Positions 2,904 through 5,636 are shown, counted from the first letter of the stretch. The stretch is DNA of 64,000 nucleotides from Chlamydiia bacterium (GCA_040382515.1 JBEIFH010000003.1:1-64000), one strand, 5' to 3'. Numbers and translations: made by a program. The notes: generated by a model not told the origin, from the letters alone.

Positions 2904-5636
2904 ATGAACACTGTTCTGAGATCGATTTGCCGGTCCCAATCGCATTTGGTTACCGATTATTTGAGGAAGTCGCGTATTCTTAATCCGGGCCAGCAGCTGG
3001 CCGATTTTTTACACACAAATCGACTGGCAGATAAGGGTGAGGGGGTTTATGAGGTGTTTGACCGCTCCACTAAATTTCTGGCCGTTGCCGGAATAAAATA
3101 CTATGGCTCTGCCGAGGCTTCGAACTGGCACTATAAATTCTTGAAGGCCGTTTCGGAATTTAAGGTCATTTTGGGGAGCCCGATGCTGACGAATGCGGGC
3201 AGACGGGAAAAAAGTGTTTCGGCCTGCTCCATTCCGCCGGTCCGGTTGTCTCGGATGCAAAGAGATGAGATTGCCAAAATGGTAGGGGATTACCATACCA
3301 GGGGGATGGGTACCGGATTTTGCCTCGATGATGTGGAAGAGCCCCAGGAGATGGTCCGTTACTTAAACCAAGTTGCCATGTCTGAAGTCCAAAAAGGGAT
3401 GATTGAACGTTCCTGCGGTAACATGGGGGTATTATCGATACACCATCCGAAGGTACTCTCTTTTATCCGTGTGAAGCAAGAGAGTCCCGATATTCAGCAC
3501 TGGAAATTCAACCTTTCGGTCAACATCACCGACGCCTTTATTGAGGCGCTCGAAAAAAACGAACCCTTCACATTGAGCGACGGTCAAAAAGTGGATCCGC
3601 AACTTTTGATGAGTCTGATAGCGGAGCACGCGCATGCTACAGGGGATCCGGGCCTAATTTTTATGGATCGGATCAACCGCCTGAACCGGGTACCGCAAAT
3701 GGGTCGCTACGAGACGGTGGTCCCCTGCGGTGAGGTGTCGCTCTTTTCGGGCGAGGTTTGCCAATTTTCCTACCTGAATCTACCGCAATTTATTGTAGGG
3801 GACAAAATGGATTGGCAAGCCTTGAAAGAGAGCATCCACACCATCATGGTGATTTTGGATAATGCCGTCGAGGTGAATATCGACAGAATGCCGACTCAAC
3901 TGAGTGCCGAAGTGATTTCCAATTTAAGACGTGTCGGTATCGGAATCTGCGGCTTTTCCGAGCTATTGCAGGCAAAGGGGCTCTGTTACGGATCTTTGGA
4001 GGCTCAAAATTTTGCCAAAGAGCTGATGAGTTTCATAAATTTGGAAAGTAAAAGGGCCTCTGTAGAGCTTGCAAAGCAGCGGGGACCTTTTCCATCTTTT
4101 AGAAATTTGAATACCCGTGTAGAGCTTTTCACCAAACCTTTCCAAAAATTCCCCACAACGTGTGCGAGTGAAAAAGATTGGGAGCAGTTAGGTAATGAGA
4201 TCCGAGAGGTGGGTATCCGTAATCTCTCGACAACCATCATCCCCCCAAGCGGAAGAAGTTCTCTCATGGCCGGGTCTAATGCCTCGATAGAGCCCCCATT
4301 TTCACTGGTTGCCGATTCTCGATTGAAAAAGACGCTCGAAACCCATGCCCTCAAAGAGGGATATTTCAACGATTTGGGAGCTGTGTACGATTGCATCGAA
4401 AAAACAGGCAGCCTGCAGCAGTCAGACCTGCCGTTAGCGATCAAGCGGATCTATAGGACGGCTCTGGAAATGACCCCTAATGACCATCTGTCCATGACAA
4501 AAGCGTTTCAATGCCATACCGACGAGGGGATTTCCAAAACGATCAATATGGGTGAAGAATCGTCTGTTGAGGAGGTAAAAAACGTATTTCTTTCGGCGAT
4601 ATCTGCTTCTAATATGAAAGGGGTCACTATTTACAGAAACAATAGCCACCGCTTGCAACCAAAATCCCTATCCACCTCTAGTAAGGATTCTCTTATGTTG
4701 ATCGATTCGATTTACGGCACTGTAAAAATAACGCCTAAAATAGCAAAAATTTTAGCCTCCCCTCTGATGGAAAGGCTTAAAAAGGTCAGACAAAATGGGG
4801 TTGCTTACCTTGTGGACCCTAGACAATCCACATCCCGTTATGATCACTCGGTCGGAACTATGGCGCTCGCTAAAATGCTAGGAGCTTCCGAGCTTGAGCA
4901 GATTCAGGCCCTTTTGCATGATGTATCGCATACCCCTTTTTCGCATCTGATCGACTACGTGTATGGATTCAAAAAACAAGATTACCATGAGAAGCATAAG
5001 ATCCGTTTTCTATCCCAAAAATGGGTCCAAAAAGAGTTGCTAGACTGCGGAATTTCTCTCGATGATCTAAAAGAGCAGAGCCCGACGTTTTTCCAAAAAA
5101 ATGGGATCAATATCGATCGGATCGATTATATGATTAGAGACCTCAAGGCGGTGGGCAAGATCTTTCAGCCCGAGTATTCGATGATACTGAACAACCTTGT
5201 GATAGAGGACAAAAGGATAAAATGCCGCGACATGGGGACAGCTAAACTTTTATTCGATAAATTCCTTGAGGTCAATCAAGAGGTCTATTTCGACCCTAAA
5301 GTGGAGGCAGCATCGGTCGCTTTTACAGCTTTGCTCCAAAAAATGCTCCTTGAGGGACTTTTAAAAGAGGAGCAGTTTGAAAAAAGCGAGGAGGAGCTTT
5401 TGGAGGCGATCAAAAACAGCCCCTACAAAGCTGAATTCGAAGCAATTGGGCCAAACAGCCTCAAGGGTTCTTCTTTACTAAAAAATGGTCGCCCACCGAT
5501 TTTACGCAAACTTCGTTTCATCGATCCTGAAATTCAGGGTTTTGAAGGGACGTTGACAGACCACGATCCAAACGCAAAAGCACGCCTTGAGGAATATCTA
5601 TTAAAAACGCCAAAAGAGGTTTACTATCATGGCTAA
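2904..5636 (+). CDS. divergent class II (NrdJ-like) ribonucleotide reductase domain fused to a C-terminal HD-domain phosphohydrolase
   Basis: RNR motifs SPMLTNAG, SAC108, GMGTG, GNMG, FNLSV, GDPG, VPC275GE, C286, RRVGIG, IRNLSTTIIPPSG, IEP, DEGISKTIN, KGVTIYR. HD motifs RLKKVRQNG, RYDH648SVG, ALLH672D673VSHTPFSH, D738RIDYMIRD. Confidence 0.88.
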   Translation: MNTVLRSICRSQSHLVTDYLRKSRILNPGQQLADFLHTNRLADKGEGVYEVFDRSTKFLAVAGIKYYGSAEASNWHYKFLKAVSEFKVILGSPMLTNAGRREKSVSACSIPPVRLSRMQRDEIAKMVGDYHTRGMGTGFCLDDVEEPQEMVRYLNQVAMSEVQKGMIERSCGNMGVLSIHHPKVLSFIRVKQESPDIQHWKFNLSVNITDAFIEALEKNEPFTLSDGQKVDPQLLMSLIAEHAHATGDPGLIFMDRINRLNRVPQMGRYETVVPCGEVSLFSGEVCQFSYLNLPQFIVGDKMDWQALKESIHTIMVILDNAVEVNIDRMPTQLSAEVISNLRRVGIGICGFSELLQAKGLCYGSLEAQNFAKELMSFINLESKRASVELAKQRGPFPSFRNLNTRVELFTKPFQKFPTTCASEKDWEQLGNEIREVGIRNLSTTIIPPSGRSSLMAGSNASIEPPFSLVADSRLKKTLETHALKEGYFNDLGAVYDCIEKTGSLQQSDLPLAIKRIYRTALEMTPNDHLSMTKAFQCHTDEGISKTINMGEESSVEEVKNVFLSAISASNMKGVTIYRNNSHRLQPKSLSTSSKDSLMLIDSIYGTVKITPKIAKILASPLMERLKKVRQNGVAYLVDPRQSTSRYDHSVGTMALAKMLGASELEQIQALLHDVSHTPFSHLIDYVYGFKKQDYHEKHKIRFLSQKWVQKELLDCGISLDDLKEQSPTFFQKNGINIDRIDYMIRDLKAVGKIFQPEYSMILNNLVIEDKRIKCRDMGTAKLLFDKFLEVNQEVYFDPKVEAASVAFTALLQKMLLEGLLKEEQFEKSEEELLEAIKNSPYKAEFEAIGPNSLKGSSLLKNGRPPILRKLRFIDPEIQGFEGTLTDHDPNAKARLEEYLLKTPKEVYYHG

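Follow-up and report, generated by a model that had tools for sequence, protein, structure and literature searches.

The window considered here is a stretch of 64,000 nucleotides from a Chlamydiia bacterium (GCA_040382515.1, JBEIFH010000003.1:1-64000), and the gene in question occupies positions 2904..5636 of its plus strand, stop codon included; all features lie on that strand unless stated otherwise. The gene is an uninterrupted open reading frame (ORF) for a protein of 910 amino acids (aa), in which a barrel resembling that of ribonucleotide reductase (RNR) is fused to an HD phosphohydrolase domain, and two kinase-like genes follow it in an operon. The barrel belongs to a monophyletic clade whose members lack the finger-loop asparagine of RNRs. 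An earlier sequence-only reading of the window had placed a remodelled RNR domain at 3180-4660; the RNR-like domain stands, but the gene as a whole is larger, since 2904-5636 includes the fused HD domain. The HD fusion, the kinase operon and the class I NrdAB encoded elsewhere in the genome were all absent from that reading.

The RNR-like barrel and its HD domain

The RNR-like (NrdJ-derived) domain comprises residues 1-585 (2904..4658). Pfam, the solved structure 1xje and Foldseek all point to the ten-stranded RNR barrel with its central finger loop. The Pfam family PF02867 matches residues 147-577 of the full protein (E 1.6e-71), and among solved proteins the sequence comes closest to the dimeric class II RNR of Thermotoga maritima (1xje/1xjk, E 1e-54, over query residues 157-585). 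The same NrdJ is the top Foldseek match for an AlphaFold2 model (template modelling score 0.77-0.80 on target length, 26% identity); the model was built from an alignment of 34 sequences (A1) and has a mean predicted local distance difference test score (pLDDT) of 88.8. Curated NCBIfam models are approached rather than reached: the NrdJ equivalog TIGR02504 (NrdJ_Z) scores 345.2 bits, below its cut-off of 399.95, and NF005401 (PRK06948, “ribonucleotide reductase-like protein”) scores 145 bits against a cut-off of 906. Matches in the ESM Atlas are generic RNR clusters only.

The finger loop reads TVVPCGEV (T271-V-V273-P-C275-G-E277-V; 3714..3737). In the HMMER alignment V273, C275, E277 and C286 stand opposite N320, C322, E324 and C333 of T. 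maritima NrdJ, which bears out the earlier observation that VVPCGE replaces TNPCGE. C275 is the putative thiyl-radical cysteine and E277 the putative catalytic glutamate. The first redox cysteine, C108 (3225..3227), is invariant in the 34-sequence alignment and conserved in both the clade and canonical NrdJ; we take it to be the equivalent of E. coli C225. The second, C286, lies in the stretch GEVCQFSYLN (3750..3779), together with G283, F288 and Y290, which are specific to the clade in a comparison of 93 clade rows with 40 canonical rows. The redox pair of strands betaA and betaF is thus kept, and C108, P274, C275, E277 and C286 are invariant across the 34 diverse clade members of the alignment.

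The effector-binding loops are altered more extensively. In specificity loop 1 the alignment to canonical NrdJ shows a 14-column gap in GMGTGFCLDDVEEP (residues 134-147, 3303..3344), the site of a deletion of 12-14 residues, and the spacing from GxGTGF to NM[GA], measured by regular expression, is 36 residues against 48 in canonical NrdJ. Loop 2 is rewritten as KGMIERSCGNMG (residues 164-175, 3393..3428), opposite the canonical KQGGxRRGANMG; the clade consensus is xGxxERPVGNMG. The shortened specificity loop and the loss of QGGxRRGANM had both been noticed previously, and alignment upholds them. At the substrate phosphates, the apical loop and its following helix (ILGSPMLTNAGRR, 3168..3206) correspond to LPNSPTLMNAG of canonical NDP-type (nucleoside diphosphate) NrdJ and retain the S-P of PNSP; across the clade this loop is LGSP or xSTP, with S/T-P retained. 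The distal phosphate loop is IIPPSGRSS (4236..4262) in place of the canonical IAPTGTIS, with P447 invariant and R451 and S452 specific to the clade.

The extent of the remodelling can be expressed against the 188 positions that are at least 85% conserved in the 40 canonical NrdJ rows. The clade retains 69 of these positions, including C108, C275, E277 and C286, and 119 are changed; the C-terminal KGxTxYRxxSxxQ motif is likewise retained. Several substitutions are fixed in a new state: Asn to A, V, S or P in the finger loop, G to M135, I to Y269, Y/F to G283, M to C349 and N to E541. L becomes F288 (F in 93/93 clade rows, L in 40/40 canonical rows), S becomes Y290 (Y in 88/93, S in 40/40) and A becomes P447 (93/93 clade rows); in the distal phosphate loop T becomes R451 and I becomes S452. 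The clade has thereby gained invariant aromatic residues at the finger loop and strand betaF.

Class I NrdA features, those of the C-terminal radical-transfer segment among them, are missing from the barrel. Proline rather than leucine precedes the radical cysteine, nrdB is not adjacent, and at 25 of the 69 retained positions the class I NrdA of the genome has another residue, for instance Tyr where the barrel has T575. Excerpts of the PASV preprint give the finger-loop signature as N437, P438, C439 and E441 (E. coli numbering) and handle P438 as a class II diagnostic. The proline before the cysteine and the 25 NrdJ-type positions that differ from the genome's NrdA together indicate a class II-like barrel that is not a partner of NrdB. 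The only NrdB of the genome adjoins the canonical NrdA on contig C12, in agreement with the earlier statement that no partner-subunit gene lies nearby.

The barrel ends at QPK and is followed by the linker and the HD domain rather than by a CxxC thiol shuttle; only two isolated cysteines occur among the 325 residues after Q585. Stand-alone members of the clade end similarly. In 64 of them the median post-barrel tail is six residues, none has two or more cysteines and 61 have none at all, whereas 35 of the 40 canonical NrdJ tails contain at least two. Pfam finds no ATP-cone (PF03477) in the 910-aa protein, and Rfam finds no cobalamin riboswitch in the window, nor is there one at 2450-3050 at E<=1, where no RNA element of any kind matched. 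The absence of ATP-cone, CxxC tail and nearby riboswitch had been claimed from the DNA at the outset, and Pfam, the protein sequence and Rfam agree with it.

An inter-domain linker (residues 584-596, 4653..4691), disordered in the AlphaFold2 model with pLDDT below 50, leads into the HD phosphohydrolase domain of SAMHD1/dNTPase (deoxynucleoside triphosphatase) type (residues 597-910, 4692..5633). This domain is recognised by PF01966 at residues 645-698 with 23.8 bits, barely above the cut-off of 22, and by sequence matches to the PDB entries 2q14 (E 6.6e-12), 2hek (1.1e-11) and 6pwy (1.9e-11) and to SAMHD1 chains (2e-8 to 5e-6); no NCBIfam model matches it at E<=1e-5. Its motifs are RYDH648, H672-D673, H676, H681 and D738-R-x-D741. 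Across 31 fusions the motif residues, H648, H672, D673 and D741 included, show at least 95% conservation, and these four are presumably the metal ligands, by analogy with SAMHD1. By these motifs and matches, the HD part is a predicted member of the SAMHD1/dNTPase family.

A conserved family and its neighbourhoods

Relatives of the fusion protein are numerous. Some 30 clusters of RNR-HD fusions, 41-98% identical, came up in a word-indexed search, and after them stand-alone or NUDIX-fused relatives (35-60%) and ordinary NrdJ (about 32%). When 1.84 billion representatives were scanned in full by HMMER with residues 1-590 as the query, 11,500 matched at E<=0.001. Nine other chlamydial genomes encode orthologs of 904-934 aa; orthologs of 910 aa are known at 76-98% identity, and most clade members are stand-alone proteins of about 570-600 aa. 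Among 282 collected proteins, regular expressions identified 123 finger loops without Asn (A 74, V 38, S 8, P 3), BLAST added 30 more (e.g., VVTCGE), 122 had the canonical Asn (13 of them split by inteins) and seven were fragments without the region. Asn is therefore missing in 153 of 153 clade-like proteins. One of the collected proteins, P0256, reads SGCGE...CFLGSINL, with a canonical-type betaF motif and a finger loop that lacks both Asn and Pro; it may represent a separate Asn-less lineage.

Phylogenetic analysis places the clade apart from canonical NrdJ. With the genome's own class I NrdA as outgroup, a single branch divides the 93 clade rows from the 40 canonical rows with a support of 100 (FastTree), and the same branch has a Shimodaira-Hasegawa-like approximate likelihood ratio of 100 in a quick IQ-TREE run on a random subsample (35 vs 20 rows). 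The groups were defined by the finger-loop residue, and that column was kept as one of about 570. Selection was estimated as the ratio of nonsynonymous to synonymous substitution (dN/dS) against the ortholog at locus L004, which is 95.7% identical; the estimate is limited to this pair, more distant pairs being saturated. For the barrel the ratio is 0.062 at a dS of 0.36, and for the HD part it is 0.085 at a dS of 0.19. The changes are thus conserved across a monophyletic clade under purifying selection, as expected of a gene that is remodelled rather than decaying, and none of the 153 clade-like proteins has the Asn.

The clade is widely and patchily distributed. A motif-limited scan of a collection with one genome per species found it in 165 genomes. 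Carriers include Chlamydiae, Berkiella and other Gammaproteobacteria, many members of the Candidate Phyla Radiation (CPR, or Patescibacteria), the DPANN archaea Woesearchaeota and Micrarchaeota, Pseudonocardiaceae, Nocardia, Croceitalea, Bdellovibrionales, Aminicenantes and a metagenome-assembled genome (MAG) of Methanosarcinales. The gene occurs in nine of 400 sampled genomes of the window's phylum, the window genome included, and seven of these are HD fusions. IMG/VR viral contigs contain only two relatives, and a tblastn search of a plasmid collection returned only canonical-type NrdJ at no more than 32% identity. In Nocardia mexicana the RNR-like gene occurs twice (L053 and L070).

Most carriers have another RNR. 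The window genome (1.39 Mb in 46 contigs, 92.65% complete) encodes a canonical class I NrdA in a 1066-aa frame next to NrdB on contig C12, which answers the earlier suggestion that a separate nrdAB be sought. A canonical RNR or NrdD is present in 29 of 32 carrier genomes, this one included: among the other 31, 24 have a full-length canonical PF02867 protein and four more have a class III NrdD. In three small MAGs (G023, G025 and G027) no RNR besides the RNR-like gene was found.

In Chlamydiae the gene heads a conserved three-gene operon in the order RNR-like-HD, APH-like kinase, Adk-like kinase. In the window, the second gene (5629..6582) encodes a 317-aa kinase of the APH/choline-kinase fold (PF01636, E 8e-13) with a signal-peptide-like N-terminus and overlaps the end of the fusion gene, stop codon included, by 8 nucleotides. 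The third gene (6542..7312) encodes an adenylate-kinase-like nucleoside monophosphate (NMP) kinase with a hydrophobic N-terminus (PF00406, E 4e-26); its true start may be the Met at about 6572. It is a second, divergent copy, scoring 138 bits with TIGR01351 against a cut-off of 168, compared with 215 bits for the genome's other adk. The APH-like gene directly follows the fusion gene in 10 of 10 chlamydial loci, the window included, nine of the 10 also have the Adk-like gene, and this order persists down to 52% identity despite differing flanking genes. At one locus (L007:5998-8311) two more APH-like kinase paralogues (356 and 385 aa) lie downstream of the operon.

Across all loci, those of Chlamydiae included, the partners are of several kinds. 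ORFs of 80 loci and the window were clustered by BLAST, cluster representatives were annotated with Pfam and the labels were spread by two BLAST rounds; the counts cover the 78 loci with a called RNR-like ORF, within three genes of it, three high-GC loci being left out. An HD, NUDIX or CYTH phosphohydrolase is fused or nearby in 49 of the 78 loci (NUDIX 17, CYTH 17, HD 15), and in 12 of the 49 it is fused (10 HD, one NUDIX, one CYTH). Kinase-like genes (dTMP-kinase-like, AAA_17/18, PfkB, APH or Adk-like) are found at 40 of 78 loci, and a phosphohydrolase and a kinase occur together at 33. A protein with a GreA/Rnk-type C-terminal domain is near the gene at 16 of 78. In NCBIfam comparisons, the P-loop kinases are nearest to dTMP kinase, the NUDIX proteins to NudI, NudG and MutT and other partners to ribokinase, ribose-1-phosphate and nucleoside kinases, all below curated cut-offs. 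Neither an nrdJb-type shuttle gene nor a radical-generating partner gene was found among the annotated and conserved neighbours.

Individual loci add further detail. The CYTH protein at L018:9539-10117 (Croceitalea) passes the cut-off for the class IV adenylate cyclase CyaB (70.8 vs 57.95 bits) and that of L024 falls slightly under it (57.7 bits); on these matches, a cyclase or a triphosphate-cleaving CYTH partner is possible. In a woesearchaeotal genome (G005, the genome of L049), NrdD lies about 5 kb upstream of a 754-aa RNR-like-CYTH fusion (contig C1, 146110-153901). An apparent 757-aa RNR-like-NUDIX fusion at L036 was rejected, since the tblastn match and the long ORF do not share a reading frame; at this locus the NUDIX gene is a neighbour and is not fused. 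In loci of Pseudonocardiaceae and Nocardia (e.g., L048:1574-3127), divergent helix-turn-helix proteins of XRE type precede the RNR-like gene, one type having a peptide deformylase domain (PF01327, E 1e-31) as fusion partner and another carrying DUF5753.

Possible functions and the source of the radical

Which reaction the remodelled barrel carries out can be weighed from what it has kept, what it has lost and the company it keeps. The reading that we favour, tentatively and at a little less than an even chance, is a dedicated line consisting of a kinase, an unregulated, single-substrate, NDP-converting reductase-like enzyme and a phosphatase. The N-terminal domain would descend from an NDP-type class II RNR, and the enzyme would stand outside the regulated supply of deoxynucleoside triphosphates (dNTPs). 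It would bind a single kind of nucleoside diphosphate in a fixed base pocket, and 3'-H abstraction and loss of the 2'-OH would begin as in RNR. The product would be 2'-deoxy, the role of the lost Asn being taken perhaps by the invariant aromatics Y269, F288 and Y290, and a small dithiol or a free redoxin, instead of a tail, would provide the reducing equivalents. The fused SAMHD1-type HD domain would strip the phosphate chain from the product, possibly following rephosphorylation, and the two operon kinases would supply the line from a nucleoside or NMP. The net result would be conversion of one ribonucleoside or ribonucleotide to a deoxy or deoxy-like nucleoside or nucleotide.

Several features suggest parts of this line. 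That both specificity loops are lost and loop 2 is fixed points to one substrate, and the description “unregulated” in the sequence-only reading fits a clade in which both effector loops and the ATP-cone are consistently missing. The S/T-P of the apical loop, which excerpts of Schell et al. (PMC8365446) tie to diphosphate substrates, suggests a diphosphate. Retention of both bottom-face cysteines suggests a disulfide, i.e., a two-electron reduction, and the partners' nearest characterised relatives act on deoxynucleotides, which suggests a deoxy product. Precedents exist for the two main departures. In part of one study (PMC4493059), Tyr124 of T. maritima NrdD takes the place of the essential Asn78 of T4 NrdD, with its hydroxyl at O2'/O3', and in part of another (PMC4520616) P. 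aeruginosa NrdJa alone, without a tail, is active with dithiothreitol in vitro.

A number of observations weigh against this line. The main objection is the missing Asn: Kasrayan et al. reportedly found in 2002 that N437 mutants are inactive. The PASV preprint, in the portion concerned with the finger loop, likewise treats this Asn as essential for class I and II RNR function. The second objection is the missing thiol shuttle, for without one multiple-turnover reduction needs a reductant beyond the protein's own tail. C286 is replaced by Ser or Asn in four divergent clade-like proteins (P0168, P0174, P0246 and P0196), which means that not all of the wider family shares a disulfide chemistry. 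The RNR-like site resembles the NDP type, whereas enzymes of the SAMHD1 type act on triphosphates, and the operon appears to offer no obvious extra kinase step between the two. Neither a phosphohydrolase nor a kinase is nearby at 22 of the 78 loci, which are mostly actinobacterial, beside XRE-type regulators, or gammaproteobacterial. Both operon kinases, moreover, start with a short charged stretch followed by a hydrophobic stretch of 12-18 residues just before the kinase core (5629-5700 and 6542-6650; e.g., MANFLKFIFFPFFVLALHTEE and MRFSILFFFLCPFFFPFVSAHE), a pattern common to the chlamydial orthologs compared (L004-L012). These N-termini resemble Sec signal peptides or membrane anchors, something unexpected in ATP-dependent kinases, and if the kinases are exported they do not feed a cytoplasmic enzyme.

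The source of the radical bears on the same question. By descent of the barrel, adenosylcobalamin should be the radical initiator. However, the window genome, at 92.65% completeness, has no match to RF00174 (cobalamin riboswitch), PF01923 and PF02572 (PduO- and CobA-type adenosyltransferases), PF02310 (B12-binding domain) or PF01497 (BtuF-type binding protein), the two markers PF02310 and PF01923 are absent from all eight other chlamydial carriers, and both are missing from 17 of the 31 other carrier genomes overall. FecCD (PF01032) gives one weak match of 30 bits, which may belong to another family of ABC permeases. B12 markers are present in Actinobacteria, Croceitalea and some CPR. Two marker-free CPR genomes (G001 and G020) encode a full-length canonical RNR without NrdB, possibly an NrdJ, and marker absence is consequently no proof of B12 independence. 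An intracellular bacterium may also take up adenosylcobalamin from its host.

A different substrate or reaction, as the sequence-only reading proposed, is plausible. Its suggestion of a nucleotide sugar is unlikely, as the partners are NMP-kinase-like and nucleoside-kinase-like enzymes and (d)NTP-type phosphohydrolases (HD of SAMHD1 type, NUDIX closest to (d)NTP diphosphatases, and CYTH); these conserved kinase and phosphohydrolase partners point to plain nucleotides as the substrate class. Its suggestion of a non-redox dehydration fits the missing thiol shuttle but sits uneasily with C108 and C286, both of which are invariant in the core clade. The corresponding alternative is a non-reductive radical enzyme acting on plain nucleotides, in which C275 would take the 3'-H and water would leave from C2', the reaction then stopping at, or being diverted from, the 3'-keto-2'-deoxy stage. 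The outcome could be a redox-neutral dehydration, an isomerisation, or release of base and pyrophosphate, and the product an unusual nucleotide (an antimetabolite, a chain terminator or a signal) that is matured or detoxified by the phosphohydrolase, with kinases supplying the substrate in the manner of viperin and CMPK2.

This alternative is a serious contender, although we consider it unlikely on balance. In its favour are the loss of Asn in all 153 clade-like proteins, the absence of a shuttle in all 64 stand-alone tails, the four divergent members without C286 and the remodelling of the pocket near C2' (L to F288, S to Y290, Y/F to G283 and N to E541). The accessory, patchy occurrence of the gene (nine of 400 genomes of the phylum) is also consistent with it, as is a weak likeness of some partners to defence proteins: the NUDIX part of P0045 matches the PADLOC family PDC-S07 (E 7e-13), and one P-loop kinase partner matches the anti-phage dCTP deaminase model with 26 bits against a cut-off of 400. 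Against it stand the two bottom-face cysteines, neither of which varies in the core of the clade. In class III RNRs that use formate the second of the two is generally lost, according to excerpts of PMC9669993, and retention of C286 thus suggests disulfide chemistry. PADLOC-DB 2.0, moreover, yields no family match for the fusion protein or its two kinases, only two relatives occur in viral contigs, and the sequence allows no inference as to the product.

In a bolder version, which we regard as rather improbable, the protein would be the first example to be noticed of a large family of radical enzymes that arose from RNR and have given up making DNA precursors. With the thiyl-radical machinery but with neither the Asn nor a reductant shuttle, such enzymes would convert one nucleotide to a non-canonical product (3'-keto-2'-deoxy or rearranged), in B12-free hosts perhaps by means of a radical not derived from adenosylcobalamin. 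The substrate would be provided by kinases dedicated to the task and the product matured or detoxified by HD, NUDIX or CYTH hydrolases, the whole forming an antimetabolite, antiviral or signalling module with a logic like that of viperin and CMPK2. Viperin with CMPK2, like the prokaryotic viperins, couples a radical enzyme acting on the nucleotide ribose genetically to nucleotide kinases, and viperin genes adjoin those of the kinases. Its fold and its cofactor (radical SAM) are unrelated and it is not known to have a phosphohydrolase partner; the likeness is one of analogy only.

It is quite improbable that the protein is an ordinary RNR that is merely unregulated, a back-up or condition-specific source of all four dNTPs running on B12 scavenged from the host. 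The catalytic cysteine triad and Glu are retained, the fold is that of NrdJ, and no other RNR was found in G023, G025 and G027. Acting on four substrates without a specificity site would, however, unbalance the nucleotide pools, and loop 2 is fixed in sequence; the TIGR02504 score of 345 bits lies under the equivalog cut-off of 399.95, Asn and tail are lost, the gene is paired with product-destroying enzymes at 49 of 78 loci, and a canonical RNR is already present in 29 of 32 carriers. Also of low probability is a non-catalytic nucleotide-binding domain that senses nucleotides and regulates the attached or adjacent phosphohydrolase without radical chemistry. The lack of B12 markers in nine of nine chlamydial carriers, the lack of a radical-generating partner among conserved neighbours and the linkage to a hydrolase (49 of 78 loci) speak for a sensor. 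A binding module would not require invariant C108, C275, E277 and C286, however, nor a dN/dS of about 0.06 across the whole barrel, and most members are stand-alone proteins of about 570-600 aa. A decaying NrdJ paralogue, for which nothing speaks beyond the lost canonical motifs, is refuted by the finger-loop counts, both trees and the dN/dS values of 0.06-0.085 and is next to impossible given an intact ORF with orthologs at 76-98% identity, a model with mean pLDDT 88.8 and the same changes fixed in a monophyletic clade that spans Chlamydiae, CPR, DPANN, Actinobacteria and Gammaproteobacteria.

Comparison with known systems places the protein closest in its working to class II RNR, from which it departs in four tested features: Asn, specificity site, shuttle and equivalog score. 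With T. maritima NrdJ (1xje, 3o0o) it shares the ten-stranded barrel and finger loop, xPCxE with its Pro, both redox cysteines, the apical-loop S-P and the C-terminal KGxTxYRxxSxxQ. It differs in having Val for N320, a loop 1 shorter by 12-14 residues and a rewritten loop 2; further differences are the 119 changed positions of the 188 conserved in NrdJ, the missing Cys tail, the score under the NrdJ_Z cut-off, the HD fusion and a genome without B12 markers. Residues 597-910 resemble dNTP triphosphohydrolases of the SAMHD1, Dgt and EF1143 type (SAMHD1, 6pwy, 2q14 and 2hek), with the H...HD...D residues kept, but the HD part is about 315 aa long and is attached to an RNR-like barrel.

Other systems resemble the locus in part. 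NrdJa of P. aeruginosa presumably has the canonical NPCGE finger loop and effector loops. Like the barrel, it is a catalytic chain without a thiol shuttle of its own; unlike it, NrdJa is active and allosterically regulated, and an adjacent nrdJb supplies the shuttle (PMC4520616, in part). OxrB, encoded beside the HD phosphohydrolase OxsA in the oxetanocin cluster, is RNR-like, and nucleoside-antibiotic clusters resemble the present operon in having a dedicated RNR-type gene near a thymidylate kinase and, for oxetanocin, an HD phosphohydrolase. In excerpts of PMC7074753, the RNR-type gene of the albucidin cluster (AlbC) lies beside radical enzymes and a thymidylate kinase, and the HD phosphohydrolase OxsA of the oxetanocin cluster strips phosphates from a modified nucleotide. 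AlbC differs in being annotated there as a nucleoside triphosphate reductase.

RNR is among the best-studied enzyme families, and the finger-loop Asn-Cys-Glu, the specificity site and the thiol shuttle are regarded as universal in classes I and II. The Asn-less sequences form a coherent family under strong selection, in which fusion or linkage to phosphohydrolases, of three unrelated kinds, and to nucleotide kinases recurs. If these enzymes are reductive, ribonucleotide reduction is feasible without the “essential” Asn, allostery or a shuttle; if they are not, the RNR scaffold has been recruited into new nucleotide chemistry. Either would be new. The chlamydial members also pose the question of how a class II-type barrel obtains its radical in genomes that show no sign of B12 metabolism. 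A literature search, with most subscription journals outside its coverage, found neither an Asn-less NrdJ-like clade nor any RNR-HD, RNR-NUDIX or RNR-CYTH fusion described. Excerpts of the PASV preprint report that 286 of 29,401 RNRdb representatives were dropped as Asn-less, non-functional bycatch, and curation of this kind may explain why the clade has escaped description.

Environmental occurrence and other features of the window

The operon can be followed in public sequencing runs. Its region (2904-7312) is present, with at least half of the sampled words, in 15 runs from at least 12 studies, mostly lake-water and freshwater metagenomes; the host organism seems to be widespread in lakes, and the assembly may derive from one of these runs. 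In three RNA-library runs from lake water, belonging to three studies, short contigs cover parts of all three genes at 95-99% identity, a fourth such run looking like a duplicate. One of these contigs spans the RNR-HD junction at 4446-4837, at a low depth that leaves DNA carry-over possible. Counts from a promoter and terminator scan of 2000-7800 are near the shuffled expectation.

Directly upstream of the fusion gene, a 163-aa hydrophobic protein without a Pfam or NCBIfam match is encoded at 2113-2604, and it is also found upstream of the gene in L004 and L006. A beta-class carbonic anhydrase with a hydrophobic N-terminus (PF00484, E 7e-33) lies on the minus strand at 895-1494, about 1.4 kb upstream of the operon. 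The sole Rfam match in the window is a transfer-messenger RNA gene (RF00023, 145.9 bits) on the minus strand at 24607-24994.

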